Source: Ottowia sp. (lineage in GTDB: Bacteria; Pseudomonadota; Gammaproteobacteria; Burkholderiales; Burkholderiaceae_C). From it: DNA of 64,000 nt. Positions within the stretch are counted from its first letter, which is position 1, and each line of letters opens with the position of its first letter. The notes under the pieces are model-generated. The model searched no databases, had not been told where the DNA came from, and saw nothing but the letters and a program-made list of their open reading frames with translations. Below, piece by piece: positions 117 through 57,052 of this stretch. A program made the position numbers and the translations under genes. Location of the stretch: the NCBI RefSeq assembly GCF_016703145.1, contig NZ_JADJCO010000003.1:317163-381162 (forward strand), given 5' to 3'.

Positions 117-121
117 GGGGC

Positions 122-1279: not shown

Positions 1280-1319
1280 GGGGCGTGGGAATCGGATCGG
1301 GCCAAGGCCGGGGGGCTCG

Positions 1320-1970: not shown

Positions 1971-2040
1971 TATGCTATTTAAATTATAGCTATCGGCGTA
2001 TGTTTCGCGCGGGCTGGGGCTCGAAAAAGCTTGTAAACGC
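1971..2040 (+). repeat. Dispersed ~60-70 bp repeat, copy 1
   Basis: TATGCTATTTAAATTATAGCTATCGGCGTATGTTTCGCGCGGGCTGGGGCTCGAAAAAGCTTGTAAA. Intergenic, between the hydrolase start and the ferredoxin stop. Confidence 0.75.
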
Positions 2041-2054
2041 CGGCTCGGGGCGAG

Positions 2055-2387
2055 TCAGCGGCCGAGGTGTGACGGCGTCAGCAGGCGCTCGACCACGCGG
2101 CCGTGCTTGAGGTGCGACTCGACGATCTCGTCGATGTCGCCGTGGTCCAGGTACGTGTACCACACCGCCTCGGGGTAGACCACGGCCACCGGCCCGCCGG
2201 CGCAGCGGTCCAGGCAGCCGGCCTTGTTGACCCGCACCCGGCCCGGCCCGGCCAGGCCCTCGGCCTTGACGCGCGCCTTGCAGTGGTCGAACGCGGCCTG
2301 CGCGCCGTGGTCGGCGCAGCAGGCTTCGCCGTTGTCGCGCTGGTTCAGGCAGAAGAAGATGTGGCGCTGGTAGTACGACGAACTCAT
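2055..2387 (-). CDS. Thioredoxin-like [2Fe-2S] ferredoxin
   Basis: 110 aa. HIFFCLNQRDNGEACC ... AGCLDRCAGGPVAVVYPEAVWY Cys pattern, typical of this ferredoxin class. Confidence 0.8.
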   Translation of the reverse strand: MSSSYYQRHIFFCLNQRDNGEACCADHGAQAAFDHCKARVKAEGLAGPGRVRVNKAGCLDRCAGGPVAVVYPEAVWYTYLDHGDIDEIVESHLKHGRVVERLLTPSHLGR

Positions 2388-3502
2388 GCGTCGATTCTAG
2401 GCGCCGCCCCCTCGCCGCGCCGCGCCAGGCGCACGATCAGGTAGACGAATGCGACGTAGGGCCACAGCCAGCCCACCCACTGCGCCAGCCCGTGGAAGTG
2501 GATGAAGCGCCCCTGCTCCCAACTCTGCAGCGTGGACGCGAAGTACGCGCTCTGCGGCGCCGCGTTGAGCAGCGCCAACTGCCCCATCAGCACCGCCATC
2601 AGCAGCACCACGCAGACCCGGGCCGGCAGGGGCAGCAGCAGGATGGCGGCCAGCGCGGCAGCCGGCAGGCCCAGCCGCACGGGCTCGCTGATCCAGGCCC
2701 AGGCGTACAGCGGCCCATAGGTCAGCGCCGCCGACAGCGCCGACGCCGCCACGCCCGCGGCCAGCGCCAGCAGCGCGAACAGCGCGCGCCGGCCCCGGTG
2801 CTGGATCACGGTGTAGCCCAGCAGACAGGGCACCAGCGCGCCCAGGGCGACGCAGGCCGTCTCGACGCCGGGCAGCAGCGGCTGCAGCTCGATCTCGCGC
2901 ACCGGCAGCCATTCCAGGAACGGCGTGTCCTGCAGCAGCGTGGCCAGGCCTTCCTCGGCGCGCTCGAACACCTGCCCCAGGCCGAAGGCGACCGGCGCTG
3001 GAAACAGCAGGCCCAGCGGCCACAGCGCCAGCAGCACCAGCGCCCCGCGCGAGTCGCGCACGAACCAGCGCGCGCGCAGGCGCCGCCAGCGGTCGATGGC
3101 GCCCAGCCGCTCCAGCACGAAGGCCGCCAGCGCGCCCAGGGCGCCACCGGCGGCGTTCAGCGCCAGGTCCAGGTTGGACGCCACGCGCAGCGGCAGGTAG
3201 GACTGCAGGCCCTCCAGCGTGAAGGACAGCAGCGCCGCCGCCAAGCTGGCCAGCGTCACCGCCGGCCAGCCGCGCCGCATGCGCATCAGCGCCAAGGCCA
3301 GCAGAAAGCCCAGCGGCGCGTAGCCGACCAGGTTGGCGACCAGGTCGAAGCGCGTCCAGTACTGCGGCAGCGGCGCGCTCAGGTAGGCCCAGGGCGCGAT
3401 GCCCTGGTCGCGCCAGCCGGTGAAGGGAAACAGGCTGGCATAGCCGATCAGCGTGGCGTAGAGCAGCGCCAGCGGCAGGGCGGCGGACTTGTGGCGTTGC
3501 AT
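2384..3502 (-). CDS. VanZ-like integral membrane protein
   Basis: Polytopic hydrophobic protein beginning MQRHKSAALPLALLYATLIGYASLFPFTGWR (VanZ-like N-terminus). Start trimmed to ATG 3502 (M76 of the track ORF). Confidence 0.55.
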   Translation of the reverse strand: MQRHKSAALPLALLYATLIGYASLFPFTGWRDQGIAPWAYLSAPLPQYWTRFDLVANLVGYAPLGFLLALALMRMRRGWPAVTLASLAAALLSFTLEGLQSYLPLRVASNLDLALNAAGGALGALAAFVLERLGAIDRWRRLRARWFVRDSRGALVLLALWPLGLLFPAPVAFGLGQVFERAEEGLATLLQDTPFLEWLPVREIELQPLLPGVETACVALGALVPCLLGYTVIQHRGRRALFALLALAAGVAASALSAALTYGPLYAWAWISEPVRLGLPAAALAAILLLPLPARVCVVLLMAVLMGQLALLNAAPQSAYFASTLQSWEQGRFIHFHGLAQWVGWLWPYVAFVYLIVRLARRGEGAAPRIDA

Positions 3503-3518
3503 GGCGCCGGCGCGGCCC

Positions 3519-3947
3519 CTAGAACGGCTTGACCACGACCAGGACCACGGCCGCCACGAGCAGCAGCACCGGCAGCTCGTTGAACCAGCGGAACCACGCA
3601 TGGCCGCGCACCGGCAGGCGTTGCTGGAAGCGCCGCAGCAGGCGCCCGCAGTCGGCGTGGTAGGCGACGAGCGCCGCCACGACCAGCAGCTTGGCGTGCA
3701 TCCAGCCGTTGCCAGGGCCTCGGCCAAGGCCGTAGCCCAGCCACAGCACCAGGCCCAGGGCCAGCGCCGGCACGGCCAGCAGGGTCATGAAGCGGTGGAG
3801 CTTGCGCGCCATCAGCAACAGGCGTTCGCGCTCGGCCACCGATTCGGGCGGCACCATCGCAAGGTTGACGAAGAGGCGCGGCAGGTAGAAAAGACCAGCG
3901 AACCAGCTGGCGACGAAGACGATGTGGAATGCCTTGACCCAGAGCAT
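3519..3947 (-). CDS. hemJ: Protoporphyrinogen IX oxidase HemJ (UPF0093/CopD-like membrane protein)
   Basis: MLWVKAFHIVFVASWFAGLFYLPRLFV ... WMHAKLLVVAALVAYHADCGRLLRRF ... FRWFNELPVLLLVAAVVLVVVKPF matches the HemJ family end to end. Start at M14 of the track ORF. Confidence 0.75.
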   Translation of the reverse strand: MLWVKAFHIVFVASWFAGLFYLPRLFVNLAMVPPESVAERERLLLMARKLHRFMTLLAVPALALGLVLWLGYGLGRGPGNGWMHAKLLVVAALVAYHADCGRLLRRFQQRLPVRGHAWFRWFNELPVLLLVAAVVLVVVKPF

Positions 3948-6296
3948 TCGTCGAGTGTAGCCAGCCGCGGGGAAAAGGCCCGCCAAGCTGGCGCTGGCGA
4001 AGTTCGGGCCGCGCCCGCTCGATCATCGATCCGCGCGCCCTTGGACCCACATGCATACTGGCGCATGGTCGACGCTTCAGTCCCTGCCTCCAGAATTCAG
4101 AAGGCCCGAAGCACCCGCATCGTGGGCGTGGGTGCGTCCGCGGGTGGACTGGAACCGCTGGAACAGTTCATCTCCGGGGTTCCTACCGCCAGTGGCCTGG
4201 CCTATGTGGTCGTCCAGCACATGGACCCGACACACAAGGCCTTGCTGGGCGAGTTGCTGCAGCGGGTCACCGCGATGCCGGTGCATGAAGTGAGGGACGC
4301 GCAGCGCATCGAGCCCGATGTCGTGTACGTCATCCCCCCCAACACCGAACTCACGGTGGTCGAGGGCATGCTCCATCTGGCGAGCCCCTCGCAGTTGCAC
4401 GGACGGCGCTTGCCGATCGATGTGCTGTTCAGTTCACTGGCGCGGGAACTCGGCGACCGGGCCATCGGCGTCGTCCTGTCGGGCATGGGGTCGGACGGCA
4501 CGCTGGGGCTGCAGGCCATCCAGTCGCAAGGCGGCCTGACCCTGGCGCAGCAACCCGATTCAGCCCAGTTCGACGCCATGCCCAAAAGCGCCATCGCGGC
4601 CGGCTGCGTCGACATCGTCGCGCTGCCGGGCGAGATGCCGGCACGCATTCTGGGCGTCGCGGGCGCGCCGGCCGCGAGCGGGCCGGGGCTGCCCGAAGCG
4701 GGCGATCACGCGGCGGCACTGAACAGCATTCTGGGGCTGTTGCACGACCGCACCCGGCACGACCTCGCGGACTACAAGCCCAACACCCTCGTGCGCCGCA
4801 TCGGCCGCCGCATGGCGGTGCATTCCCTGGACACGATGACGGCCTACGCCGCCTTCCTGCGTCACAACACACAGGAGCTGGACCTGCTGTTCAAGGAGAT
4901 GCTGATCGGCGTCACCACCTTCTTTCGCGACCCCGAGGTCTGGCAGGAACTCCGGGACCAGGTTCTGCCGACCCTGCTCGCGCGCCATGCTGCAGCGGGC
5001 AACGGACCCCTGCGCGCCTGGGTGGTGGGTTGTTCGACTGGCGAGGAAGCCTACTCGCTGGCCATCACCTTCGCGGAGGTCCTGGAGTCGATGCCGCAAC
5101 GTGCTTCTTGCGAGCTGCAGATCTTCGCGACCGATCTGAACGCCGACGCGATCGCCGCGGCGCGCAACGGCCGCTTTGCCCCGACGATCACCCGGGATTT
5201 GACCCCCGCACGGTTGGCGAAGTTCTTCACCGAGCGGCCCGACGGCTACCAGATCGACAAGCGCATCCGCGACATGGTGCTGTTCGCCCAGCACGACGTG
5301 ATCCTCGATCCGCCGTTCACGCGCCTGGACATCCTGTCGTGCCGCAACCTGATGATCTATTTCAGCGCCGCCCTGCAACGGCGCCTGGTGCCGCTGTTCC
5401 ACTACAGCCTGCGCCACGGCGGTGCCTTGCTGCTGGGCAATTCGGAGACCGTCGGCCGTGCGCAGACGCTGTTCATTCCTCTCTCGCCAAAGTCCAGGCT
5501 CTTCTGGCGCGGCGACAATGCCGGTGCCGTCGACGCCATGGTCTTTCCGACCCACCGACGTCCCGCCTCGCCATCGGCGACGCAGGAGTCCACTGTGCCC
5601 GCATTGAATCCTCCTCTGGTCAACCTCCAATCCGTGGCCGACCAACTGCTCCTGCAGACGTTTTCGCCGCCGGCGGTGCTGGTCAACGACGGGGGCGACA
5701 TCGTCTACATCAGCGGACGCACCGGCCGCTATCTGGAGCCCGCGGCGGGCAAGGCGAACTGGAACATCCATGTGATGGCGCGGCCCGCCATTCGCACGCA
5801 ACTGGCGATTGCCTTGAGGACCGCGTTGCAAGACAAGACCCCGGTTCAGTTGCGCGGGCTGCGGCTCGATGATGAAACGACGGCCACGGTGGACATCACG
5901 GTGCAGGCCGTTCTGCAGCCCAAGTCCTTCGACGGCATGGCGATGATCGTCTTTCGCGATGCGGCCCTGCCGCCCAAGCGGCGCGGGCGGCTCGCCAAGT
6001 CGGCGGGCCCCGCGAACACGAGCGTGGAGGACGAGTTGGTTCGCGCACGCGCGGAGATCCAGGCGCTGCGGCAGGAGATGCGGGCGTCGCAGGAGGAACT
6101 GCAGGCGGCCAACGAGGAACTGCAATCGACGAACGAGGAACTGCAGTCGGCCAATGAGGAACTGACGACCTCCAAGGAAGAGGCGCAGTCGATGAACGAG
6201 GAACTGCAGACGATCAATGGCGAGTTGCAGTCGAAGCTCGATGACCTGGCGCTGTCGCAGAGCGACATGCAGAACCTGCTGAACAGCACCGACATC

Positions 6297-7735
6297 GGGC
6301 CTGTCTGAATTTTTGTGTTCGAGGCGGTTGGTTGATCTGCTCTCGATTGATTTCTCTTCTGTCTTCAGGCCCCTGCCGGTCGCGGCGCGGTGAGCCTGTA
6401 TTCTGGTTCCAACCTCCTTGCTGGCGCCATGGGTCGGCTGCGTGAAGCGATCTTCGTGGGTATCGCGAACTGGTTCTCGCCTCCTTCAATCCTTGGCTGC
6501 CCGTCCCCAGTCGGCCGTTATGTTGCGCAGCGCCAGCCAGATCAGCTTGGAGGCCGCATCGTCACTGGGGTGTCCCCGTGTCTTGATGATCTTGCGCAGT
6601 CGCGCGTTGATGCTCTCGATGGCGTTGGTCGTGTAGATCACCCGGCGGATGGACGGTGGAAATGCAAAGAACGGAATCACCGGTCCCCGCCCGACGCCAG
6701 GCCGCCACCACGGTGGGAACTTGACGCCCACGGGCCTTGAGCGAAGGCGTCGAGTTCGGCCTCGGCCGCCTCTGCGCTGGCGGCCGTGTAGATCGGCCTG
6801 ATGGCCGCCGCCAGCAACTTGCGATCCTTCCAACTGGCGTAGTCAGGGGTTGCGAATCAGGTGCACGATGCGTCTGGCGTGGTGGCCGGGTACACCGCCG
6901 CCAGCGCTTCGGGCATGCCCTTCAAGCCGTCGGTGACGGCAATGAGGATGTCATTGACCCGCGGGTCTTCAAGTCGTTGAACACCTTCATCCAGAACTTG
7001 GCGCCTTCGGTGCCCTCGATCCAAGCCCAGGATGTCGCGCGTGCCATCGGGCAACACGCCCAGCGCCAGGTAGATCGCCTTGTTGCGGACCACGGCATCC
7101 TCACGAATCTTGACCCGCAGGGCGTCGAAGAAGACCACCGGGTACATCGGCTCCAGCGGGCGCGCCTGCCAGGCGGTGACCTCGGCCATGACGGCGTCGG
7201 TGACCGAACTGATGAACTCGGGCGACACCTCCACGCCGTAGCTCTCCAGCAGGAAGCCCTGGATCTCGCGCATGGTCAGGCCGCGCGCGTACATGGCCAC
7301 GATCTTGTCGTCGAAGCCGGTGAAGCGGCGTTCGTGCTGGGGATGAGCACCGGCTCGAAGGAGCCGGCGCGGTCGCGCGGGACTTCGATGCGCAGCGGCC
7401 CATCGTCGGTCAGCAGGTCTTGGCGCTGCGGCCGTTGCGCTGGTTGGCAGTGCCGGCCTCGGGCTTGCTCGCGCCATTCGGGTAGCCCAAATGGTGCGAC
7501 ATCTCGGCACCCAGGGCGCGCTCGATCAACGCCTTCTTGAATGCCACCGTCGCCGCGTTCACGGCATCGCCGGTCATGGGCCCCGAGACGAACTGGTCAA
7601 TCAGCTCCTTCGGGATCGACGGCAGCGCCGCCATCTTGGCGGCGATCGCCGCGTTCTTCATCTTCGTCTTGCTCGTCGGCATACATGTTCCTGGTCGTCA
7701 TGCTATGCCTCGAACACAAAATTCAGGACAGGCTC
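6297..7735 (-). mobile_element. IS256-family insertion sequence, degenerate copy 1 (1439 bp)
   Basis: Terminal inverted repeats GGGCCTGTCTGAATTTTTGTGTTCGAGGC (6297-) and GCCTCGAACACAAAATTCAGGACAGGCTC (-7735). 8-bp direct duplication CCGACATC at 6289-6296 and 7736-7743. Confidence 0.85.
6486..7682 (-). pseudogene. IS256-family (mutator-type) transposase, multiple frameshifts
   Basis: The product is spread over three track ORFs: 7410..7682 (MPTSKTKMKNAAIAAKMAALPSIPKELIDQFVSGPMTG...), 6857..7510 and 6486..6833 ([30 protein letters not shown]). Confidence 0.85.
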
Positions 7736-8105
7736 CCGACATCGCCACGCTGTTCCTCGATAGCGACCTCAACGTGCGGCGCTTCACCGAGCAGATCGCC
7801 CGCGTGGTGCATCTGCGTGAAGGCGACATCGGCCGCCCCTTGAGCGAACTGGCGAACACCTTGATCTATCCGGAACTTCATGCTGACGTGAAAGAGACGC
7901 TGCGCACCCTGGCCTTCAGCGAGAAGCAGGTCGCCACCACCGATGGCCATTGGTACACCGTGCGCATCATGCCCTACCGCACCCTGGCCAACGTGATCCG
8001 GGGCGTGGTGATCACTTTTGTGGACATCACGGCCGCGAAAGAACTCGAGTCCCGCCTGCGCAAGGCGTAGAGTGAGGGTTGCGCAGTCCTGCGCAGAAAG
8101 CCGAT

Positions 8106-8699
8106 ATGTCCCATCGCGACCTCGAATCCACGCCGCTGACCGACCTTCGGTTCCGAGCGGCGAGCCGGCTGGCAGGCGTCGATGGGGCACAGGGCGGGGC
8201 GGCCTGGGCCACCGACGCGCTGGCGGTGCTCCATGCGTTGGCATCGTCCCCCGACACCGCGGCCGATGCGCTGGCCTTGCTTCACGAGCTGCAAGTCCAT
8301 CAGGTCGAAGTGGACCTGCAGGCCGAGGAGCTGCGGGCCTCGCGCGGCGAATTGGAGGCGGCGCTGCGGCGGCAGATCGAACTCTATGATTTCCAACCCG
8401 TCGGCTGCTTCTCCCTGGACGACCATCTGATGATCCGCGAAGCGAATCTGATGGGCGCAAGAATGCTCGGGGTCGAGCGCGATGAAGCCTGTGGGCTGGC
8501 CATCGACACATTTTTCACGGCCAGCAGCTTGCGTGCGCTGCGAGACTTGATCGCCGGCGCGCGCGAGCGCGGTCACGCGTCTGGCACGCTCAAGTGGCGT
8601 CACGCCAGCGGGCTTGAGCAGGCGGTCCGCATGGAAGCGGCGCTTGCCCCCTCTGGCGGCGCGTGCCTGGTGGCGCTGATGCGCATCGAGGGCGCCTGA
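8106..8699 (+). CDS. PAS-domain protein with N-terminal coiled coil
   Basis: LQVHQVEVDLQAEELRASRGELEAALRRQIELYDFQPVGCFSLDDHLMIREANLMGARMLG is the usual coiled-coil-PAS partner found downstream of CheB/CheR-PAS genes. ATG at 8106 is preferred over the track start at 8079. Confidence 0.6.
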   Translation: MSHRDLESTPLTDLRFRAASRLAGVDGAQGGAAWATDALAVLHALASSPDTAADALALLHELQVHQVEVDLQAEELRASRGELEAALRRQIELYDFQPVGCFSLDDHLMIREANLMGARMLGVERDEACGLAIDTFFTASSLRALRDLIAGARERGHASGTLKWRHASGLEQAVRMEAALAPSGGACLVALMRIEGA

Positions 8700-9115
8700 G
8701 AGGCCGCCACGGCAGGCGGCTGACCTGCCACGTGGGATGGCGTGGGGGCTGGTCAGCGATCGCTGGTCGGCCAACGTCGAAGCATGCGGGGCACGATCAT
8801 GGCGACACGCGGGCCACCGTTCGTGGTCTTGTGAATGATGCGGTTCGATCCATGCACCTTGGGCGCAGGTGCATCTTCCGTCGTGAAGTCGCCTTGCTGC
8901 CGTGGGAGGTCCTTGCCCTTGGAGGCGAGCGTGAGAATGGGGCGGATCATGGGGGAGCCTTTGGGAGTGAGGCGGTGCACTGCGCTGCACCCGCGGCCAG
9001 GCGCTGCAACCGGCGACGCCGTTCGCCATATCGCCTGGGTTCTGGTTGTATCCATGCCCTGGGTCTTCGTCTGTGTGCTGCCGCACGGAGGCAAGCGCGA
9101 GTGGTTTGCCGCGCG

Positions 9116-45155: not shown

Positions 45156-48100
45156 TCATTGCGCTGGCGATGCCCACTCCGCACCCAGCGCCTCGGCCTG
45201 CTGCAGCACCAGTTCCACCGCGCTGTCCGCCATGTCCGGCGGGTACTTGTACTTGCGCAGGATGCGCTTGACCATCAGCCGCAGGCTGGCGCGCACGCTC
45301 TCGCGGCGGCTCCAATCGACGGTGATGTTCTGGCGCAGGTTCTCGGTCAGTTCGTGGGCGATCTTCTTCAGCGTCTCGTCGGTGAGTTCGCGCACGGCCG
45401 ATTCGTTGGCCGCCAGCGCGTCGTAGAAGCGCACCTCGTCCTCCGTCAGGCCCAGTTGCTCGCCCCGGCGGGCCGCGTCGCGGAACTTGCGGGCCATCTC
45501 GACCAGTTCTTCCATCACCTGCGCCGTCTCGATGCTGCGGTTCTGGTAGCGGGTGATGACGCCGGTGAGCATGTCGGAGAACTTGCGCTGCTGCACGATG
45601 TTGGTGGCGAACCGGGCCTTGATCTCGCCTTCGAGCAGGCGGTCCAGCAGTTCCACCGCCAGGTTGCGTTCGGGCAGGCTTCGCACCTGGGCCAGGAACT
45701 CGTCGTCCAGCAGGCCGATGTTGGGCTTGTCCAGGCCCACGGCGTCGAAGATGTCCACCACCGATTCGCTGACCACGGCCTGGTTGATGATCTGGCGGAT
45801 GGCGGCATCGCGCGCCTCGTCGGTCTTCTTCCGCTGGCTGGTGTCGCGCTTGGTCAGGATGACCTTCATGGCTTGCAGAAAGGCCACCTCGTCGCGCACC
45901 GCCTGGGCCTCGTCCAGCGTGCAGCACAGGGTGAAGGCCTGGCCCATCGCCAGGGCGGCGTCGGCAAAGCGCTTCTTGCCATCGCGCAGCACATGGCCGT
46001 CCTTGTCCCTGGCGCCGCTGGACAGGCCCAGCACGTGGTTGGCGGCGCCCGCCAGCGTCTTGTGGCCGCCCGCCTTGAAGCCCGACCAGTCGAAGCCATG
46101 CAGCATGGCGTGCAGCACGTCGCGCTTTTCCAGCAGCACGGCCAGCGCTTCGTGCGCGTCCACCGTGGGCCTTCCACGGCCCTGGCTGGCCGTGTATTCC
46201 TTCATCGCGGCCTTCAGCTCGTTGCCGATGCCGATGTAGTCCACCACCAGGCCGCCCTGCTTGTCGCGGAACACGCGGTTCACGCGGGCGATGGCCTGCA
46301 TCAGGTTGTGGCCCTTCATGGGCTTGTCGACATACATGGTGTGGGCGCAGGGGGCGTCGAAGCCGGTGAGCCACATGTCGCGCACGATGACCAGCTTGAG
46401 CGGGTCGGCGGGATCCTTGAAGCGCTTTTCCAGGCGCTTCTTCACCTGGGCGCCGTGGATGTGCGGGCGCAGCAGGGCCTTGTCGGAGGCAGCGCCGGTC
46501 ATGATGACCTTGATGGCGCCCTGCTCCGGGTCGTCGCTGTGCCAGCCGGGGCGCAGCCGGGTGATCTCGTCGTAGAGGTGCACGCAGATGTCGCGGCTCA
46601 TGGTCACCACCATGGCCTTGCCGCCGAAACCATCCGACATGTTGGCCTGGTTGCGCTGCTCGAAGTGCGCCACCAGGTCGGCCGCCACGCTGGCCACGCG
46701 GGGTTCGGCACCCACGATCTTTTCCAGCGCGGCCCAGCGGGACTTGAGCCGAGCCTGGGCGCCCTCTTCCTCGTCCTCGGCCAGTTCGTCCACCTCCTCG
46801 TCCAGCAGGGAAAGGTCGGCCTCTTTCAGTTTGAGCTTGGCGAGGCGACTCTCGTAGTAGATGGCCACCGTGGCGCCGTCTTCCTTGGCCTGCCGCATGT
46901 CATAGACATGGATGTAGTCGCCGAACACGGCGCGGGTGTCGCGGTCGGTGCTGCTGACCGGCGTGCCGGTGAAGGCCACGAAGGTGGCGTGAGGCAAGGC
47001 ATCGCGCAGATGCTGGGCGTAGCCGACCTGGTAGGTGGTCTTGTATTCGGGCGGTTCGAACTCGGCAAGCACCGCGCTGCTGCCTGCGTCGCCGATCACT
47101 ATGCTTTTGCTAGCTTCCTGCGCTTTATCAGCAAGGGCTGGAGGCTGATTTGGCTTCAAACAACCCACCTTGCGCGTCTTGAGCCTGGCCTCGAAGCCGT
47201 ACTGCGTGCGGTGCGCCTCGTCGGCGATCACCACGATGTTGCGGCGCTCGGACAGCACGGGGAACATGTCCTCGTCCTCGCCCGGCATGAACTTCTGGAT
47301 GGTGGCAAAGATGATGCCGCCCGAGGGCCGGTTGGCCAGCAACTGCCGCAGCGCCTGCCGCGTGGCGGCCTGCACGGGCTGCTCGCGCAACAAGTCCTGC
47401 GCCAGGCTGAACACGCCGAACAACTGCCCATCGAGGTCGTTGCGGTCGGTGATGACCACGATGGTGGGGTTCTCCATCGCGGGCTCCTGCATCACGCGCG
47501 CCGCGAAGCAGGTCATGGTGATGCTCTTGCCGCTGCCCTGCGTGTGCCACACCACGCCGCCCTTGCCCTGGATGCCGGCCGGGCTGCCGGGGCGCGAGGC
47601 CGCCACCACGTGCCCGATGGCCGCGCGCACCGCGTGGAACTGGTGGTAGCCCGCCACCTTCTTGACCAGTTGGCCATCGTCCTCGAACAGCACGAAGCAG
47701 CGCAGGTAGTCCAGCAGGTAGCGCGGCGCCAGCGCGCCGCGCACCAGGGTTTCCAGCTCGTTGAACTGGCCCAGCGGGTCGAGGGTGGCGCCATCGATGG
47801 TGCGCCACTGCAGGTACCGTTCGGTGTTGGCCGAGAGCGACCCCATGCGCGCCTCGGAGCCGTCCGAGACCACCAGCAGCTCGTTGTACTGGAACAGGTC
47901 GGGAATCTGCGCCTTGTACGTCTGGATCTGGTCGTAGGCGCGCCAGATGTCGGCGTGCTCGTCGGCGGGGTTCTTCAGCTCCAGCAGCACCAGCGGCAGG
48001 CCGTTGACGAACAGCACCACGTCGGGCCGCCGCGTGTGGTGCGGCCCCTTGACGGTGGATTGGTTGACGACCCAGAACTCATTGCGCGCCGCATCCTGCC

Positions 48101-48440
48101 AGTCGATCAGGCGCACGAAGTCGCCCACCGTCTCGCCATCGCGCTGGTACTGCACCGGCACGCCGCCCACCAGCAGCTTGTGGAAGGCGCGGTTGGCCGA
48201 GAGCTGGGCCGGGATGCCCAGGCTCAGCACCTGCTGCAAGGCGTCTTCGCGGGCGGCGGTGGGAACGCCGGGGTTCAGGCGCCCGATGGCCTCGCGCAGG
48301 CACGGGGCCAGCACCACCTGGCGGTAGTCGGTGCGCTGGGGGTTGGCGCCATCGGGGGCGATGGCAAGGCCCGGGTGCACCGCATAGCCCACATCGGCCA
48401 GCCAGGCCAGGGTTTCTTGTTCGAGTTGGTCTTCAGTCAT
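45156..48440 (-). CDS. hsdR: Type I restriction enzyme R subunit (carries an in-frame repeat insertion)
   Basis: Walker A HTQGSGKS, motif [11 protein letters not shown], motif III FTGTP. The start ATG at 48440 is 5 nt after the fic stop. About 23 codons (47098-47165) derive from the dispersed repeat. Confidence 0.9.
47098..47165 (+). repeat. Dispersed repeat, copy 14 (in frame inside hsdR)
   Basis: CACTATGCTTTTGCTAGCTTCCTGCGCTTTATCAGCAAGGGCTGGAGGCTGATTTGGCTTCAAA. Read on the minus strand as [23 protein letters not shown]. Confidence 0.8.
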
Positions 48441-48444
48441 GGGC

Positions 48445-49593
48445 TCATCCTGCCAGCAACGCGATATACGCCACATAGCTGTAACTGCGGTGGGTCTTCT
48501 GGCCGGTCAGCTCAGAGACGATGCCCAAGTCCGCCAGCACCTTCACCGCCGCACTAGCGGTCGGAAAACTGGAGTCAAGCTTCTGGCGTACCTGCTCGAT
48601 GGTGAAGCGCGGCATCATCGGCAGCAACTCCAGCAGGCGATAGCTGGCCATGCCTCCCCTGGGCGACGCCAGCAGGCGGCGGCGGTCTTGCGCCAGCAGG
48701 GCGGCCACGGCCACGATGTTGCGCTCGGCCTCTTGCGCGGCCAGCGCCACGCCCTCCAGGAAGAACGCCACCCAGCCCTCCCAATCGCCCTCGGTGCGGA
48801 CGTTGGACAGGCGGCGGTAATACTCCTTCTGGTGCTGCTTCAAATAGCCGCTCACATACATCAGCGGCTCGGGCAGCAAGCCCCAGTGCTCCAGCAGTGC
48901 GGCGATCAGCAGGCGGCCCATGCGGCCATTGCCGTCCAGAAACGGGTGGATCGTCTCGAACTGCACGTGGATCAGCGCCGTCTTCACCAACGGCGGCAGG
49001 GGCTGGGCCTCGCCGTCATGGATGAAGCGCTCCAGGCCGGCCAGCAAATCAGGCACCCGCTCGGGCGGCGGCGGCACGAACACCGCGTTGCCGGGCCGCG
49101 TGCCGCCAATCCAGTTCTGCGAACGGCGCAGCTCGCCCGGCTGCTTGCCCTGGCCCCGCACGCCATCGAGCAGCAGGCGGTGCGCGTCGCACAGCAGGCG
49201 CACGCTGATGGGCAGGCCCGCCGGCTCGCGCAGGCTGTCCTGCACCAGCCGGAAGGCGCGCAGGTAGTTGGTCACCTCCTCCACGTCGTCGGTGTTGCTG
49301 ACCGTGAAACCGGCCTCCTCGTCGAACAGATCCACCAGCGTGGCCTGCGTGCCCTCGATCTGCGAGGTGAGCAACGCCTCTTTGCGAATGGCGCTGTACA
49401 AGAGCCAATCCACTGACGGCACCAGCCCCGCCACGCCAGCCAGCCGCGCCAGCGCCATCTCGGCGGCATGGTTAGCAGCGGCGAAGGATTCGGGCGCCAG
49501 CGGCGGATCAGCGGGCGGCAGCGGGTGCGGCACGAACGCCCGCACCGGCTCGCCCAGCGTGGTGGAGGTGATGGTGGTGCCGGTGCTGCGCAT
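48445..49593 (-). CDS. Fic-family protein (AMPylase-type) with Fic_N and C-terminal wHTH
   Basis: Catalytic motif [13 protein letters not shown]-terminal [16 protein letters not shown]. 382 aa. Confidence 0.9.
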
Positions 49594-49608: not shown

Positions 49609-49983
49609 TTAAACCGAGTGCAGGGCGATTAAAGCATTCTTTAATGATGACCGTGGATGAAAAACTGCTTTCATGGCTGTCAGCAGCCCGCAGGCACGCA
49701 CCTGCCCAAACCCCACCCGCAGCGCCTGGCGGTAGCGCAGCACCTCCTTGGCGGCGGGGTTGGCAAACACCTCCGGCAGCACATCGTCCTTGAACCGCTC
49801 ATCGTGCGTGGTGACGATGTTCTCGATCTCCGAGCTGTCCTTGGCCTCCTGCAGGCCCAGGGTGCTGATCAGGATGCCCTGGTTGGGAATGGACGCCGCA
49901 ATGCCCTTGAGTTCCGCCAGCCTGCGGCTGCTGCTGGCCAACTTCTTGAGGATGGCGGGCGTGTCAAAGCGGGCGGCGTCCAT
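49609..49983 (-). pseudogene. Fragment (N-terminal ~100 aa) of a second Fic-family gene
   Basis: FDTPAILKKLASSSRRLAELKGIAASIPNQGILISTLGLQEAKDSSEIENIVTT...AAKEVLRYRQALRVGF is a Fic_N domain. No catalytic HPFxxGNGR follows. Confidence 0.65.
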
Positions 49984-50035
49984 CTGTTCGAGCGGGTGAG
50001 CAGGGGCATGGCGGGCCTACGGCGGGCTGGGATGC

Positions 50036-50102
50036 GTATAGAAAAGCCGGTTTTCTATACATGGTAGCCAGCATGTGTATAGGAAACGCCATTTTTTATA
50101 CA
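50036..50102. promoter_or_regulatory. Two adjacent AT-rich palindromes (candidate operator or bidirectional terminator)
   Basis: GTATAGAAAAGCCGGTTTTCTATAC (50036-50060) and TGTATAGGAAACGCCATTTTTTATACA (50076-50102) share the half-site TATAG(A/G)AAA. Confidence 0.35.
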
Positions 50103-50180
50103 TGTACGGTGCGGCATACATGCAAAGCGCCTTTTCAAGCATAGGGGACGGATGGCCGGTGTATCGCGCCAAGTTACCAA

Positions 50181-50238
50181 TGAAATCTGGCTCTAGCGCC
50201 TACCCATCAAGCGCAAGCAGCTATTCTTTAAATAGCAA
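50181..50238 (-). repeat. Dispersed repeat, copy 15 (inverted)
   Basis: The reverse complement reads GCTATTTAAAGAATAGCTGCTTGCGCTTGATGGGTAGGCGCTAGAGCCAGATTTCA. Lies downstream of the TIR gene. Confidence 0.7.
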
Positions 50239-50366
50239 CAAAAGCCTGAGTGTTGAAAGAGTTTTTGCATGAGCCGCTGGAAAGTCAACTCATACATCCG
50301 CACAGCTCGGTCTCCTGATCCGCGACTGGCATCGGCCAAGAGCGGACAGTTGTCGAGAGGAGTCGC

Positions 50367-51380
50367 TCAACTTCTGTGCTCGCCGTCAACGTGACGTGCA
50401 AAGGCATACTGGAGTAGTGAGGTTCTGCCTTGAATGTGCAGGACCCGGATCTGCATAAAAACACCATTTGCGTCTTCCAGTTCAAACGGTACATCGACTT
50501 CAAAAGTCGACGGCTGTTGGACGCCGCCGTTAATTGCGATATTGTCGGCGTAGAGGTACATGCGATTATGAGTATCTAGTATCGGATTTAGACGCCCCTC
50601 CAGCCCAGGAATATGCCCGGTGCTATGGCAGATGATCGAACCTGTGTTCTCTGAATCGAAAACTGTAACGGTTATATCAGTGCCAGGATCCCACGATTTA
50701 ATGACCGCACCTGGATATTTAGGATGAGCAACAAGCAGTTGATAGAGACGGCGCGTCGGTATGGACACAGCGGCCACGCCGTCTGCGGGGGTGACCGCAT
50801 TCTTCGTGGTGCCGTTGTCGGCGATGGCAGTAACCGATGCTCCTGCTACGGGTGAGCCACTTGAAGAGATGACGGAAACTCTCGCATGAACCGGGTCAAT
50901 ACGAGGTGCATTTTCCACTGAAAACATGGCGCGTCGTATCGACTCCGAAGGAATAGTGCGTCCGCTGTTCACCAGCTTCGTCTGAACTACCTTGACGAAC
51001 TCTTGAGGAGATCGTCCAGTTAGGGAGATGTATCCCACGGTTGATAGAACACCGGGAATCGGCGTGTCGTCGAACCTTGTTGGAAGTATGTACTCCTGAT
51101 GTTCCTGAAACGCGCGCGCTTGCATGGCCTGACGTTCGTGATTTGTCCACAGCTTGCGCGCGTAGTGCTCTGAAATGAACATGATCGTGTACAGCGCCTT
51201 ATTTTGATAGACGTCAGATAAGTATTCGTAGAGGTTCTTCCCCCAGAGGTTTGATTCTTCAAATAGATCGTAGAAGACCTTGACGCCTGAGTCTCGCAGC
51301 AAATTTGCGACTTGATCGACGTAAACTCTGTCTTCTCCGGCGAATGAAAGAGCGATCTCAAATTCGACTGTACGGTTCAT
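50367..51380 (-). CDS. TIR-domain protein with C-terminal beta-sandwich (CarboxypepD_reg-like) and an unassigned domain
   Basis: N-terminus EFEIALSFAGEDRVYVDQVANLLRDSGVKVFYDLFEESNLWGKNL...IMFISEHYARKLWTNHERQAMQARA matches the bacterial TIR_2 pattern, including a Glu (E82) at the expected catalytic position. The 337-aa frame is intact. The segment is AT-richer than its surroundings. Confidence 0.8.
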   Translation of the reverse strand: MNRTVEFEIALSFAGEDRVYVDQVANLLRDSGVKVFYDLFEESNLWGKNLYEYLSDVYQNKALYTIMFISEHYARKLWTNHERQAMQARAFQEHQEYILPTRFDDTPIPGVLSTVGYISLTGRSPQEFVKVVQTKLVNSGRTIPSESIRRAMFSVENAPRIDPVHARVSVISSSGSPVAGASVTAIADNGTTKNAVTPADGVAAVSIPTRRLYQLLVAHPKYPGAVIKSWDPGTDITVTVFDSENTGSIICHSTGHIPGLEGRLNPILDTHNRMYLYADNIAINGGVQQPSTFEVDVPFELEDANGVFMQIRVLHIQGRTSLLQYAFARHVDGEHRS

Positions 51381-51392
51381 ACTTTTCGATGC

Positions 51393-51635
51393 CTAAATTT
51401 TTTGCACGGAAGGCGCAATTCGGCCCGCATAGGCAGCCACTGTAAGCCCAGGCCGGATGATGCACGATGTTCTTTCGTATTTGGCTCCATAGTATCTGCC
51501 GATTCCCGCAACTAGAAAGGCTGCTATGAGGCCCAAATGCCAGATGGCTACAATGGGTCGATTCCTGCCGGAGATAACAGTGCAATTGGATGAAACCGAT
51601 TGCCGCATTGACTGGACATATGGCACTGGATTCAT
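51393..51635 (-). CDS. Hypothetical 80-aa single-pass membrane protein
   Basis: Its ATG overlaps the hsdS stop (ATGA, 51632-51635). One TM segment, PIVAIWHLGLIAAFLVAGIGRYYG. Its stop lies 13 nt before the TIR ATG. No homology recognised. Confidence 0.4.
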   Translation of the reverse strand: MNPVPYVQSMRQSVSSNCTVISGRNRPIVAIWHLGLIAAFLVAGIGRYYGAKYERTSCIIRPGLTVAAYAGRIAPSVQKI

Positions 51636-52235
51636 TGGCCATGAGAGTCTGGGATGCGACACCCCTCCTCTTGCAGGGTGTTGACGCCCGCTTCGGTCAA
51701 CGCCTCGGGTACGCGAAGCTGGCCGGAGATCAGACGGGGGAGCAGAGTATCGCGGAGGATAGTGAGAGTTTGGACTTGTTCTTCATTGGCACGCACGGTT
51801 TCATAAAGTGGCGAAATGTGTGCTGCGAAGGCTTCGGACACATCATTTCCTGGGTTCAGAAATTTGATCCGCCACATATTGGATTGACTCAGCTTCGCTT
51901 GGACTGCGCCCGTGATGTAAGGCTGAATATTCGTGCGCTGCAATGCAAGCATCAAATGCTCTGTAGATACTCCCGCCTTCCCTTGAATAATGTGTGCATG
52001 GTTATTTACCCAGAACTTTCCCCAAACATATTGCATGATTGGAAAGCCCTGCTCATCCGCAACCGATCCGTCCTCTCCTGCCAAAAGAAAGATGCCATCG
52101 AAAAGATAGCCATCAACGTAATCCATCAGGGCCGCCGCACCGTAGTATGGATATATGCCACGACGCTTGGCGCGTTCAGCACTTGATAGAGGAACACGCT
52201 TGGAATCAGAAATCGCGCATACCTCTTTTAGACTG

Positions 52236-53313
52236 GGCGGCCTCAAATCCGAAGTGCAACACCCCCTGCGGTAAGGTGTTCACATGCCATCCGCCTCCCG
52301 ATACGAACAACTCCAACCCGAAGACCGCATGACGATCGCGAGCATGCGCCAGCAAGGGCAAAGCGCGCGATGGCGCTGGGGCGATCGCCATCGACGATCA
52401 GCCGCGAGCTGGCGCGCAACACGGGCGCTGACGCGGCCTACGGCTCGCACCGCGCACAGCGTCCTGCCAGGCGCCGGCGTGCTGCCCGCCCTCTTGCCAA
52501 ACTGTCTTCTGACAGCCTGTCCTGGAGCCTGGTGATGACCCTGTTGGACTGGAAGTGGTCGCCCCAGCAGATTGCCGCTACCCTCAAGCGCACCTTTCCC
52601 AACGAGGCCGCGCGCCACGTGTCCCACGAAACCATCTACACCGCCATCTACGCCCAGCCTCGGGGCGAACTGCGCCGCCAGCTCATCGCCTGCCTGCGCC
52701 AGGGCCGTGGCACACGGTTGCCGCGCAGCCGTGGCACCGACCGGCGTGGCCAGATCCCCGAGATGGTCAGCATCCACTGCGCCCACCCGAGATCGAGGAT
52801 CGCGGATGCCCGGCCACTGGGAAGGCGACTTCATCAAGGGGCGGGCAACAAGTCCTCCGTGGGCGTGCTGGTGGAGCGCTCCAGCCGCCTGGTGCTGCTG
52901 GCCAAGATGGACGATGCCACGGCCAGCTCGGCGCTGGCCGGTTTCACGGCCAAGCTCAACGCGATTGCCGATCCGATGCGCAAGAGCTTCACCTACGACC
53001 AGGGCAAGGAGATGAGCTACCACCGGCACTGGCCGCCGCCAGGCGCAGGTCTACTTTGCGACCCCCACGCCCCTGGCAGCGCGGCACCTGCGAGAACACC
53101 AACGGGCTGCTGCGCCAGTACCTGCCCAGGGCACTGACCTGAGCGTGCACAGCCAGGACGAACTGGACGCCATCGCCGACAGCTTGAACAGCAGACCTCG
53201 CGCAACCCATGGCTTCAACACCCCGCTGGCCGTCTTCCACCTGCTGGCCATGGCTCAGCAGGCTCCAGTTCTCGCTCAATAACCACGTGTTGCGCTTCGG
53301 TCTTGAAACCGCC
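52236..53313 (+). mobile_element. IS30-family insertion sequence, degenerate (1078 bp)
   Basis: Inverted repeats GGCGGCCTCAAATCCGAAGTGCAACAC (left) and the reverse complement of GTGTTGCGCTTCGGTCTTGAAACCGCC (right). 3-bp duplication CTG at 52233-52235 and 53314-53316. Confidence 0.8.
52284..53282 (+). pseudogene. IS30-family transposase, at least 4 frameshifts
   Basis: Pieces lie in all three forward frames: YEQLQPEDRMTIASMRQQGQSAR / LGRSPSTISRELARN... / RPPEIEDR / MPGHWEGDFIKG / AGNKSSVGVLVERSSRLVLLAKM... / PWQRGTCENTNGLLRQYLP. Confidence 0.8.
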
Positions 53314-53635
53314 CTGCAATAGGCCCACCCTCTTGGTACCTCCCCTAACTCCGACGCCTCGAACCCATCCGGAAACAGCGCCGCCGTGGCCTCGTCCATG
53401 CCTTCGGGGGCGCGGCCTTGCATCTTGGCACTCACGGGGTCGAAATCGACGAACCACGACTTGAAGAGCGCCTGGGCGATGGCTTCGAGCGTGGCGTTGG
53501 CTTCGCGTAGGAGGGTGATGCGGTCGTCAAGCGGACGTAATGCCGCGGAAACCTCGCGCTGCACTTCAAGGCGGGGCGCTTCAAAGAAAATCTGACCAAA
53601 CGCTGACTTGTTCAGAATTGGTTGCGCGGAGCCCC

Positions 53636-55107
53636 GAGCCTGTCCTGAATTTTGTGTTCGAGGCATAGCATGACGACCAGGAACATGTATGCCGACGAGC
53701 AAGACGAAGATGAAGAACGCGGCGATCGCCGCCAAGATGGCGGCGCTGCCGTCGATCCCGAAGGAGCTGATTGACCAGTTCGTCTCGGGGCCCATGACCG
53801 GCGATGCCGTGAACGCGGCGACGGTGGCATTCAAGAAGGCGTTGATCGAGCGCGCCCTGGGTGCCGAGATGTCGCACCATTTGGGCTACCCGAATGGCGC
53901 GAGCAAGCCCGAGGCCGGCACTGCCAACCAGCGCAACGGCCGCAGCGCCAAGACCGTGCTGACCGACGATGGGCCGCTGCGCATCGAAGTCCCGCGCGAC
54001 CGCGCCGGCTCCTTCGAGCCGGTGCTCATCCCCAAGCACGAACGCCGCTTCACCGGCTTCGACGACAAGATCGTGGCCATGTACGCGCGCGGCCTGACCA
54101 TGCGCGAGATCCAGGGCTTCCTGCTGGAGAGCTACGGCGTGGAGGTGTCGCCCGAGTTCATCAGTTCGGTCACCGACGCCGTCATGGCCGAGGTCACCGC
54201 CTGGCAGGCGCGCCCGCTGGAGCCGAGGTACCCGGTGGTCTTCTTCGACGCCTTGCGCGTGAAGATCAAGGAAGACGCGGTGGTGCGCAACAAGGCCATC
54301 TACCTGGCCCTGGGCGTGCTGCCCGATGGCACGCGCGACATCCTGGGCTTGTGGATCGAGGGCACCGAAGGCGCCAAGTTCTGGATGAAGGTGTTCAACG
54401 ACTTGAAGACCCGCGGCGTCAATGACATCCTCATTGCCGTCACCGACGGCTTGAAGGGCATGCCCGAAGCGCTGGCGGCGGTGTCCGGCCACCACGCTGC
54501 AGACGTGCATCGTGCACCTGATTCGCAACTCCCTGGACTACGCCAGTTGGAAGGATCGCAAGCTGCTGGCGGCGGCCATCAGGCCGATCTACACGGCCGC
54601 CAGCGCAGAGGCGGCCGAGGCCGAACTCGACGCCTTCGCTCAAGGCCCGTGGGGCGTCAAGTTCCCCACCGTGGTGGCGGCCTGGCGTCGGGCGTGGGAC
54701 CGGGTGATTCCGTTCTTTGCATTTCCACCGTCCATCCGCCGGGTGATCTACACGACCAACGCCATCGAGAGCATCAACGCGCGACTGCGCAAGATCATCA
54801 AGACACGGGGACACTTCCCCCAGTGACGATGCGGCCTCCAAGCTGATCTGGCTGGCGCTGCGCAACATAACGGCCGACTGGGGACGGGCAGCCAAGGATT
54901 GGAAGGAGGCGATGAACCAGTTCGCGATACTCCACGAAGATCGCTTCACGCAGCCGACCCATGGCGCCAGCAGCAAGGAGGTTGAACCATGAATACATGG
55001 CTCAACCGGGGCGCCTCCGGCGGCCTGGCAGGGGCCTGAAGACAGAAGAGAAATCAATCGAGAGCAGATCAACCAACCGCCTCGAACACAAAAATTCAGA
55101 CAGGCCC
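53636..55107 (+). mobile_element. IS256-family insertion sequence, degenerate copy 2 (1472 bp)
   Basis: Same terminal repeats as copy 1 (GAGCCTGTCCTGAATTTTGTGTTCGAGGC ... GCCTCGAACACAAAAATTCAGACAGGCCC). 8-bp duplication GGAGCCCC at 53628-53635 and 55108-55115. Confidence 0.85.
53689..54992 (+). pseudogene. IS256-family transposase, at least 2 frameshifts
   Basis: ORF 53689..54846 is colinear with copy 1 up to ...GMPEALAAV. The product continues in ORF 54512..54826 ([18 protein letters not shown]...[22 protein letters not shown]) and then in a third frame (...[26 protein letters not shown]...). Confidence 0.85.
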
Positions 55108-55489
55108 GGAGCCCCCGGCAAGGCTGCGAATTTCATCCTTTCGCGTGTTCAGGTTGTAGTAAACGAACTCAGGGCAGAACTTCGACTCGTCAACCAAGAT
55201 CGCATTGATCTGCTGATTGGTAACGCATCGAGAGGCAGCAATCGCAGCCTTACCCATGTCTGAGCCGATGCATGTCACCAAAACGCTGCGTGGTGGTATG
55301 AGGCTGCCTTTGACAGACTGGGCTCCGGCCTCTGAGATGCTGCGAACGGTCTTGGTGATCCACTTGTTCCCCGAGAAATCAGGAGGAGACACAAACGGCA
55401 CGTCGTCGCCGCCGAAAGCGGGCACGCCACTCTTGGGTGTCTTTCCCGTAACTAAGCGACCGACTTCTTGAAGGCGGTACGTTCTCCAC

Positions 55490-57052
<1,563 letters not shown>

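Follow-up and report, generated by a model that had tools for sequence, protein, structure and literature searches.

What is an intact TIR gene doing between the hsdS and hsdR genes of a type I restriction-modification (R-M) locus? The question is raised by a 64-kb stretch of an Ottowia sp. contig (NZ_JADJCO010000003.1), here called the window, whose coordinates count from its first letter throughout. An earlier note on this DNA had proposed a two-gene module tied to the R-M system, in the manner of the anticodon nuclease PrrC, in which an 80-aa membrane protein, translationally coupled, would partner a TIR protein. The anatomy and conservation of the gene, its cassette nature, the lack of a partner and a broken hsdS give another answer. 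We hold with high confidence that the gene is a solitary former integron cassette, with no partner and no coupling to R-M. At roughly 50%, we consider its product to be a stand-alone immune protein that unites a sensor with a TIR NADase, lodged here as an ex-cassette in a known defence hotspot. An anti-phage role of the gene is plausible on sequence grounds.

The earlier note had delimited the open reading frame (ORF) correctly, as 337 uninterrupted codons on the minus strand, and its ATG start was confirmed. The product divides into three parts, as judged from Pfam, Foldseek and AlphaFold2 (AF2) models:

50367..51380, minus strand: intact 337-aa ORF with ATG start, uninterrupted, encoding a TIR domain, a beta-sandwich and a C-terminal domain; the functional unit.
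50961..51380, minus strand: TIR domain, aa 1-140 (Pfam TIR_2 over aa 9-124, E=8.2e-17).
50661..50894, minus strand: transthyretin/CarboxypepD_reg-like beta-sandwich, aa 163-240 (Pfam match, AF2, Foldseek).
50391..50660, minus strand: conserved, unannotated all-beta C-terminal domain (CTD) of ~90 aa, aa 241-330 (AF2 and profile search).

The bacterial TIR motifs quoted in the earlier note are present, and its placing of W78 and E82 at catalytic positions proved right. In a phmmer alignment, K76, W78, T79 and E82 of the motif K76-x-W78-T79-N80-x-E82 pair with K202, W204, T205 and E208 of AbTir, BtTir also being aligned; the codon of the catalytic Glu82 is GAA at 51137-51135. In AbTir, the E208A variant is inactive, W204 governs the cyclisation of ADP-ribose (ADPR) and K202 contacts the diphosphate (10.1101/2022.05.07.491051). 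Among 51 close homologues of the window protein, K76, W78, E82 and R83 are invariant and H81 is nearly so; across 72 family members, including those from Aquimarina, the conservation of all five residues is at least 95%. The best sequence matches in the PDB are to the AbTir/BtTir/TcpB (BtpA)/PdTIR group (E=3e-6 to 6e-4). Foldseek against the PDB matched the N-terminal domain to BtTir (7uxr, TM-score 0.69), and also to AbTir, BtpA, PdTIR, BcThsB and the SPARTA TIR. The protein thus has what is expected of a catalytic TIR, namely a TIR fold, a Glu in the register of AbTir E208, a Trp at the W204 position and a Lys at the K202 position, and its catalytic centre is apparently competent.

Beyond the TIR domain, the earlier note had recognised a CarboxypepD_reg-like sandwich. 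The Pfam match over aa 168-236 (E=5e-7, 30.3 bits) falls just below the 32.3-bit cut-off of that family, and the assignment is backed by the AF2 model (pLDDT 85-95) and by transthyretin-type Foldseek matches. The last ~100 residues, which had been left unplaced, have no Pfam match after aa 240 and constitute a real, conserved and unannotated domain. Modelled alone by AF2, the CTD is a seven-stranded beta domain with a pLDDT of 85.7. The fold check proposed for the C-terminal residues gave a mixed outcome: the sandwich is transthyretin-like, and the CTD remains without an assigned fold by Foldseek (best E of 0.25 against the PDB; best E of 0.02 at a TM-score of 0.30 against BFVD). For the full protein, modelled with 51 homologues, the mean pLDDT was 75.8, with values of 85-95 over the C-terminal two thirds.

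The gene is under strong purifying selection. Its product is 94% identical in amino acid sequence to that of a related locus, L008 (loci carrying relatives of the gene are numbered with an L). Comparison with L008, L001 and L009 gave dN/dS values of 0.05-0.07 overall, with 0.03 for the TIR domain, 0.05 for the CTD and 0.14-0.17 for the beta-sandwich, which is the least constrained portion of the protein.

No family in PADLOC 2.0, NCBIfam or Pfam matched the protein over its full length, which bears out the earlier note's view that the architecture lies outside the named systems. The top PADLOC match, the candidate PDC-S66 (E=5e-14), covers the TIR only (aa 4-100 against profile positions 146-239 of 282), and differs in carrying its TIR at the opposite end, with neither sandwich nor CTD. 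We found no published description of a TIR joined to a CarboxypepD_reg or transthyretin-like domain.

The limits of DNA similarity to other loci define the unit in which this gene is inherited. Blastn similarity to the closest relatives (88% to L008, 77% to L001-L003) is confined to 51396-50382, beginning 16 nt before the TIR ATG and ending with the last shared codon. Two boundary features were recognised:

51391..51396, minus strand: TTAGGC, relic of the integron core site G-TTRRRY at the 5' end of the cassette (blastn boundary at 51396).
50367..50381, minus strand: 3' breakpoint, where similarity stops after GGC (50382) and four more codons follow (EHRS).

Because the similarity is limited to this interval, the unit of inheritance is a single gene and not a module, and the two-gene module of the earlier note falls away. 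At the 5' site, the relatives read G-TTAGCN followed by ATCGA upstream of the ATG, and their ORFs finish with ...N'GC TAA C, the R'' box, followed by attC. In the window, the relic reads T-TTAGGC, the preceding base being T instead of G, and the R'' box has been lost.

The relatives reveal where these boundaries come from. The R'' and R' boxes of a textbook attC site read RYYYAAC and GTTRRRY, respectively. In L009 (Jeongeupia naejangsanensis), the gene lies in an array of small same-strand ORFs, each trailed by an imperfect palindrome of 57-97 nt that starts with GCCTAAC and ends with AACGTTAGGC; these palindromes are textbook attC sites. A covariance model (R1) constructed from 21 such sites found 21 in L009, eight in L001 (five of them outside the seed set, and each directly after an ORF) and two in L008. 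Over the other ~880 kb searched, which included the window and the Aquimarina loci of the search set, it gave no site at E<=0.1. Hairpins anchored on the R'' box were significant in L001, L009, L005 and L087 (z of -3.4 to -4.9). Furthermore, the first six bases of the cassette are complementary to the R'' box in seven loci, in four base-pair variants: TTAGCC/GGCTAA (L001, L008, L009), TTAGCG/CGCTAA (L005), TTAGCA/TGCTAA (L087) and TTAGCT/AGCTAA (L094, L096). This covariation between the 5' core and the R'' box is the strongest point for a cassette nature.

Two of these loci also show the cassettes in their setting. L001, from a metagenome-assembled genome (MAG) of Desulfomicrobium (1-9100), is an array with eight attC sites whose successive cassettes carry Thoeris II (ThsB and ThsA_Macro), a 284-aa protein, a DUF4062 protein and the TIR protein. 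The Thoeris II system is complete within one cassette there, and the two unknown proteins beside the TIR cassette are also cassettes. In L087, a fragment 56% identical to aa 256-316 of IntI1 (7639-7824; the IntI1 query was approximate, so that the homology alone counts) lies divergently, 177 nt upstream of the gene, and the locus looks like a decayed one-cassette integron amid housekeeping genes. A Pfam search of the ORFs in the first 4.3 kb of L009 found no integrase; that array may be a cluster of attC sites lacking an integron integrase (CALIN), or its integrase may lie past the contig end. In L096, a tyrosine recombinase beside the gene was considered as an integron integrase and dropped, having no BLAST similarity to IntI1.

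In the window itself, model R1 found no attC even with its filters off (best E=1.3), a result to be read with the fact that the model was built on a few attC types and can miss others; nor was there a significant hairpin. Neither an IntI-like sequence nor an attC was found in the 64 kb. Since the 5' core relic is kept, the R'' box and attC are gone and the window holds no IntI or array, this copy is best read as an ex-cassette residing outside any integron. Homologues of integron defence cassettes are known to occur outside integrons without attC (10.1101/2024.07.02.601719), and the literature describes integrons as storing defence cassettes among many kinds of function.

The proposed membrane partner lies immediately upstream of the TIR gene:

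51393..51662, minus strand: small ORF of 89 aa from a GTG at 51662, or of 80 aa from an ATG at 51635; judged a chance ORF.

As the earlier note had described, this ORF exists, its ATG (51635-51633) overlaps the hsdS TGA (51634-51632) and it includes a hydrophobic stretch, IVAIWHLGLIAAFLVAGIG; the spacing from its stop to the TIR ATG is 12 nt, and not 13. No homologue was found among 5.8 billion (5.8e9) protein clusters or in ~90 related loci, and tblastn over 80 loci carrying relatives of the TIR gene returned nothing better than E=3.4. The gene caller left it uncalled on a sister metagenome contig, L093, and it shares its stretch of DNA with several other chance ORFs (52-198 aa) in different frames. 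The conserved cassette unit includes its TAG stop (51395-51393) but no part of its body, so that the ORF spans the junction of host DNA with the cassette relic, which supplies its stop codon. Comparison of the window with L093 was uninformative on selection, the region being identical except for an extra A in the spacer. Because it lacks homologues, is uncalled on L093 and owes its stop codon to the cassette relic, the small ORF is, as far as sequence can tell, a chance reading frame in junction DNA and not a gene. The candidacy of this ORF as a conserved, translationally coupled membrane partner was rejected, similarity to the relatives beginning downstream of its body.

The surrounding R-M locus has itself been rearranged. 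Read along the minus strand, hsdM and hsdS TRD1 (TRD, target recognition domain) are followed by an IS256-family insertion sequence (IS) element, a central hsdS piece, an IS30-like remnant and hsdS TRD2. Then come 235 nt containing the small ORF, the TIR gene itself and ~380 nt without coding sequence, and after these a Fic_N-only fragment, a full SoFic-type gene and hsdR:

55490..57052, minus strand: hsdM (PADLOC MTase_I, E=4e-177, alignment from aa 95 of a long ORF).
55096..55500, minus strand: N-terminal hsdS fragment with TRD1 (Methylase_S, E=3e-10).
53622..55121, plus strand: IS256-family element within hsdS, with a frameshifted transposase (Transposase_mut, E=2e-72).
52284..53142 (about), plus strand: frameshifted IS30-like transposase remnant within hsdS (HTH_38 and rve matches; ORF pieces in several frames).
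51632..52246, minus strand: hsdS fragment with TRD2 and the C-terminal conserved region (PADLOC Specificity_I, E=7.5e-58, profile positions 196-366 of 368).
49609..49983, minus strand: Fic_N-only fragment, left over from another Fic/SoFic-type gene (29% identical to the resident SoFic).
48445..49593, minus strand: full-length SoFic-type Fic gene (PADLOC SoFic, E=2e-110, 17-380 of 382 aa; Pfam Fic_N and Fic).
45156..48476, minus strand: hsdR (PADLOC REase_I, 1095 bits).

The start of hsdM is likely the Met of MNADIQ... The IS256-family element has 43-nt terminal inverted repeats at 53622-53664 and 55079-55121 and ~80% nucleotide identity to annotated IS256-family copies. Together with the IS30-like remnant, it breaks hsdS into three pieces (51632-55500). 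HsdS is required for methylation as well as restriction (PMC11411939), and with hsdS in three pieces the type I R-M system here is therefore very probably dead. The position between hsdS and hsdR given in the earlier note is accordingly correct as to the slot, with the qualification that hsdS is present there only as its TRD2 fragment and that the Fic_N fragment and SoFic stand between the TIR gene and hsdR. SoFic is a known single-gene defence system; the NCBIfam SoFic match of the resident gene reaches 148.5 bits, well under the 550-bit cut-off. Since the Fic_N remnant is only 29% identical to the resident SoFic, it indicates gene turnover at this hotspot.

The slot between hsdS and hsdR has been described as a hotspot where defence genes are embedded, PrrC being almost exclusively R-M-embedded (PMC12255303, PMC11411939, 10.1101/2024.01.29.577857). 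Further embedded examples are DarTG2 between hsdS and hsdR in enteropathogenic Escherichia coli (EPEC) and TgvAB within the type I R-M cluster of V. cholerae; 'guilt by embedding' is described by Payne et al.

Base composition sets this part of the locus apart. The AT-rich block that the earlier note had judged by eye at 50.3-52.2 kb was borne out by computation: GC content is 0.514 in the 50-52 kb bin, compared with 0.63-0.76 in all other 2-kb bins of the window. GC at third codon positions (GC3) is 0.53 in both the TIR gene and hsdS TRD2, and 0.89-0.91 in hsdR, hsdM and SoFic; the overall GC of the TRD2 fragment is 0.519, making it as AT-rich as the TIR gene. Because GC is ~50% all the way from TRD2 through the 235-nt junction and the TIR gene to the 380 nt beyond it, we infer that this ~2.2-kb block, including hsdS TRD2, was imported as a whole from a lower-GC donor. 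The donor, or the state before insertion, was not recovered, an exact 28-mer taken from the junction being absent from the JGI metagenome contigs. The DNA flanking the cassette relic (51397-51631 and 49984-50381), also ~50% GC, matches none of the fetched loci and may represent donor flanks or decayed cassettes.

The sister contig L093 is 98.7% identical to window positions 52049-49074. The TIR gene and its flanks are identical in the two, save for one extra A at 51387, in the 12-nt spacer. Of the 40 differences between window and L093, 36 are packed into ~120 nt of the SoFic N-terminus (49426-49548), a cluster that suggests a recombination patch or a hypervariable segment.

Relatives of the TIR protein are numerous and widely dispersed. 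At E<=1e-3, 3933 proteins matched; the best 120 are 65-100% identical, mostly 332-333 aa long, and come from Desulfomicrobium, Massilia, cyanobacteria, Vibrio, Pseudomonas, Pseudoalteromonas and others. A scan of species representatives added Lentisphaera (94%), Verrucomicrobiota and one Nanoarchaeota MAG. Such extreme horizontal spread, with 65-94% identity across phyla, fits accessory, selfish or defensive genes.

Genomic contexts were compared for 16 independent close relatives, the window counted. No neighbouring family recurs beside the gene. Adjacency to hsdS, hsdM or hsdR is seen only in the window (1 of 16 contexts, and none of 54 Aquimarina loci); the recurrence of homologues between hsdS and hsdR, which the earlier note had proposed as a check, was looked for and found nowhere else. 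Integron signatures are present in L001, L005, L008, L009, L087, L094 and L096. Defence neighbours occur in the window (type I R-M, SoFic), in L001 (Thoeris II, DUF4062), in L005 (BrxR and a GIY-YIG protein) and in L013 (mad3/mad2-like). Housekeeping surroundings were found in L004/L010, L081, L087 and L088, and also in L008, L011, L012, L015 and L016, whose tested neighbours had no PADLOC match.

In L094/L095 (Vibrio cyclitrophicus) and L096/L097 (Pseudoalteromonas sp. SD03), 6001-7843, a second TIR gene follows the family gene. It encodes a 262-aa protein of the same TIR subtype (45-55% identity over the TIR) with a Cys-rich C-terminus, and in L096 both TIR genes lie in one cassette (TTAGCT ... 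AGCTAAC). This pair may be a two-TIR variant of the system. L091 (Sinorhizobium chiapasense plasmid pSchITTGS70c, 31.9-46.8 kb) encodes a 734-aa protein in which the whole TIR-sandwich-CTD arrangement recurs at 32% identity; its gene clusters with those of two more TIR proteins and a UvrD-type helicase.

The C-terminal module has a life of its own. A CTD-only profile matched 467 representative proteins at E<=1e-3 and 308 at E<=1e-10, some with two or three copies of the domain. Among the best 147 of the 467 proteins, the co-occurring Pfam domains were CarboxypepD_reg (45 proteins), TIR_2 (16), Big_1 (10), HATPase_c_4 (4), caspase (3) and Pkinase (3), with two each of PIN_8, DUF4062, Trypsin_2 and Peptidase_M48 and one each of HipA, EAD11, pYEATS and AbiEi_4. 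TIR domains of the same subtype (46-59% identity) in turn occur with different C-termini, as in a Ralstonia protein beside a DEAD helicase, a KAP NTPase and TatD, a Nostoc GUN4 fusion, Bacillus proteins and the 262-aa Cys-rich paralogue. Two-way shuffling of this kind is the usual signature of modular conflict proteins. In one CTD protein, P0124, the N-terminal region is caspase-like by eye.

We propose a mechanism in which the protein would be cytoplasmic, with an N-terminal NAD+-cleaving TIR followed by the transthyretin-like sandwich and the ~90-aa beta domain, the latter two serving as a sensing or assembly module. An infection cue would bring about self-association and thereby a composite TIR active site, with E82 as the catalytic residue and W78 favouring ADPR cyclisation. 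TIR-TIR association forms the active site in AbTir filaments (10.1101/2022.05.07.491051). NAD+ would then be consumed, possibly with release of a cyclic ADPR (cADPR) isomer, and the infected cell would enter growth arrest, as in abortive infection. The R-M genes and the small ORF would be dispensable for the TIR protein. The NADase activity, the trigger, the defence phenotype and expression in the host are thus all features that we infer for this protein.

By analogy, the enzyme resembles the AbTir/BtTir group, the logic DSR2 and the mobility the integron defence cassettes. In the AbTir, BtTir, TcpB (BtpA) and PdTIR proteins, the closest in the PDB by sequence and fold, the K-x-W-T-N-x-E motif is identical in register. 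Members of that group combine the TIR with an N-terminal coiled coil or other region and have mainly been studied as virulence-type factors, whereas the protein here, known from sequence, has its TIR at the N-terminus, followed by the beta-sandwich and a new beta domain. DSR2 consists of a SIR2 domain and a C-terminal sensor that binds phage tail tube protein. The proposed logic would be shared, with an N-terminal NAD+-degrading effector and a C-terminal sensor in one polypeptide acting in stand-alone abortive infection, although DSR2 uses a SIR2 and not a TIR effector, and the protein here is far smaller (337 aa) with an unrelated sensor. Like the integron defence cassettes (BRiCs of mobile integrons; those of sedentary chromosomal integrons), the relatives are compact, usually single-gene, attC-bearing units in arrays with known defence cassettes, whereas the window copy lies outside an integron and has no attC. 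In two integron papers that were searched for TIR, no TIR cassette of this architecture was found.

Two further likenesses bear on how the gene might act with others. The TIR protein shares with PrrC, DarTG2 and TgvAB the same physical slot between hsdS and hsdR; it differs from the PrrC type in that its family adjoins hsd genes only here, and beside a disrupted hsdS. With ThsB of Thoeris, a TIR enzyme of bacterial immunity, it has weak profile and fold similarity, and in L001 its cassette shares an array with Thoeris II. Unlike ThsB, it has a C-terminal module of its own and belongs to Pfam TIR_2, not ThsB_TIR: the PADLOC ThsB1 match is weak (E=7.5e-5, aa 4-101 only), and the Pfam scan gave no PF08937 (ThsB_TIR) match. 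No ThsA_Macro or ThsB homologue was found in the window or in the other loci beyond the Thoeris II cassette of L001, no search aimed at SIR2-SLOG ThsA having been made. Because no ThsA was found and ThsB_TIR did not match, the protein is not a member of Thoeris.

These likenesses translate into competing explanations. That a PrrC-like latent effector is guarded by the type I R-M system, with the TIR protein and the coupled 80-aa membrane protein as a two-gene module, would account for the same-strand position between hsdS and hsdR, for the ATGA in which the start of the small ORF overlaps the hsdS stop and for a slot that hosts PrrC, DarTG2 and TgvAB. This explanation can hardly be upheld. The small ORF has no homologue and takes its stop codon from the cassette relic; none of the 15 other independent contexts or the 54 Aquimarina loci, whose synteny is different, has an adjacent hsd gene; the IS-split hsdS leaves no intact complex to guard; and SoFic with the Fic fragment separates the TIR gene from hsdR. 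The PrrC-like two-gene proposal of the earlier note is thus largely refuted. A Thoeris-like arrangement, in which a sensor TIR turns NAD into a signal, of the cADPR type or another, for an effector acting in trans, or pairs with a paralogous TIR, is improbable, if less far-fetched. W78 at the AbTir position that decides ADPR cyclisation speaks for it, as do the weak ThsB1 match (7.5e-5), the Foldseek match to BcThsB, the L001 TIR cassette two cassettes from Thoeris II and the second TIR gene in Vibrio and Pseudoalteromonas, which shares one cassette with the first in L096. It is countered by the lack of ThsA_Macro or ThsB homologues and of any recurring effector family beside the gene, by the Pfam assignment to TIR_2 and by the fact that most copies are solitary single-gene cassettes.

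A role outside defence, for example in NAD-linked regulation or in stress- or envelope-related signalling, with the immune contexts incidental to cassette life, is an unlikely explanation that has several observations in its favour. The Aquimarina homologue is syntenic across the genus with radical SAM, asparaginase and alpha-2-macroglobulin genes, many relatives lie amid housekeeping genes, the CTD also occurs on signal-peptide-bearing proteins, and integron cassettes encode varied functions. Set against this, the CTD is partnered by effectors typical of conflict systems (TIR, caspase, PIN_8, HipA, DUF4062, EAD11, AbiEi), at least 4 of 16 contexts include defence neighbours, and the spread across phyla at 65-94% identity is extreme. 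It is also possible, though we would not bet on it, that this particular copy is an unexpressed passenger, an intact ex-cassette brought in as one block with hsdS TRD2 from a ~50% GC donor and now functionless within a decaying R-M locus; this would be compatible with the immune-protein reading of the family. The copy lacks attC, a sigma-70-like promoter on its strand and a Shine-Dalgarno sequence; the upstream operon is cut by two IS elements in opposite orientation; the composition is unameliorated (GC3 0.53 vs ~0.9); and a dead Fic fragment adjoins. However, the ORF is full length and keeps every family-invariant residue, the TIR gene is identical in L093 while the neighbouring SoFic differs at 36 positions, and promoter scans of the kind used are weak evidence.

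The reading we favour, a stand-alone sensor-plus-TIR NADase immune protein, also has to be set beside several findings that weigh against it. About half of the close relatives lie amid housekeeping genes with no defence neighbour. In Aquimarina, the homologue is 46-48% identical and syntenic, with an alpha-2-macroglobulin gene nearby in 52 of 54 loci; the same site has Asparaginase_2 nearby in 39 of 54 and a radical SAM gene in 37 of 54, and the mean identity within the genus is 74%. In that genus the gene behaves like a vertically inherited core gene, which is atypical for defence. The conserved W78 fits a signalling role as well as a depleting one. Some CTD proteins (P0122, P0123, P0124 and P0126) begin with signal-peptide-like sequences, so the module may also work outside the cytoplasm and not only as a cytoplasmic phage sensor. 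The TIR part of the AF2 model is at moderate confidence (pLDDT 46-80), and the family members are known from sequence and predicted structure, not from function. Finally, because no recognisable promoter (none sigma-70-like on the gene strand), Shine-Dalgarno sequence or attC was found for the TIR gene in the window, and because the operon upstream is IS-broken, expression here is uncertain. The Aquimarina loci, together with those of related Flavobacteriaceae/Bacteroidia, are L018-L070, L075 and L080.

A broader proposal can be put forward more tentatively, at somewhat less than even odds. The protein would represent an undescribed, widespread family of single-protein immune sensors, defined by the module of sandwich and CTD, which evolution would have swapped among effectors of the TIR, caspase, PIN, kinase, trypsin, DUF4062 and HipA types. 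In its TIR form, the family would travel across phyla as an integron cassette, its module would recognise a conserved infection cue and activate the TIR NADase, and in Aquimarina the protein would by now be fixed as part of the core genome.

Uncharacterised TIR fusion proteins are common; what marks this one as a candidate TIR-effector immune protein is the predicted new sensor module and the cassette lifestyle. The locus also carries a warning. Neither a place inside an R-M operon ('guilt by embedding') nor an overlap of start and stop codons says much about functional coupling; in this case each arose as a side effect when a cassette landed in a locus under decay. With the gene fixed throughout the genus, Aquimarina is a place to test whether TIR proteins of this kind can be recruited to roles outside defence. 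If the family is a defence gene, it would provide a compact one-gene TIR system and a new sensor module common to at least half a dozen other effector types, so that the finding of one ligand would annotate hundreds of protein families. It would also be a further case in which integrons supply chromosomal hotspots, the hsdS-hsdR slot among them, with defence genes.

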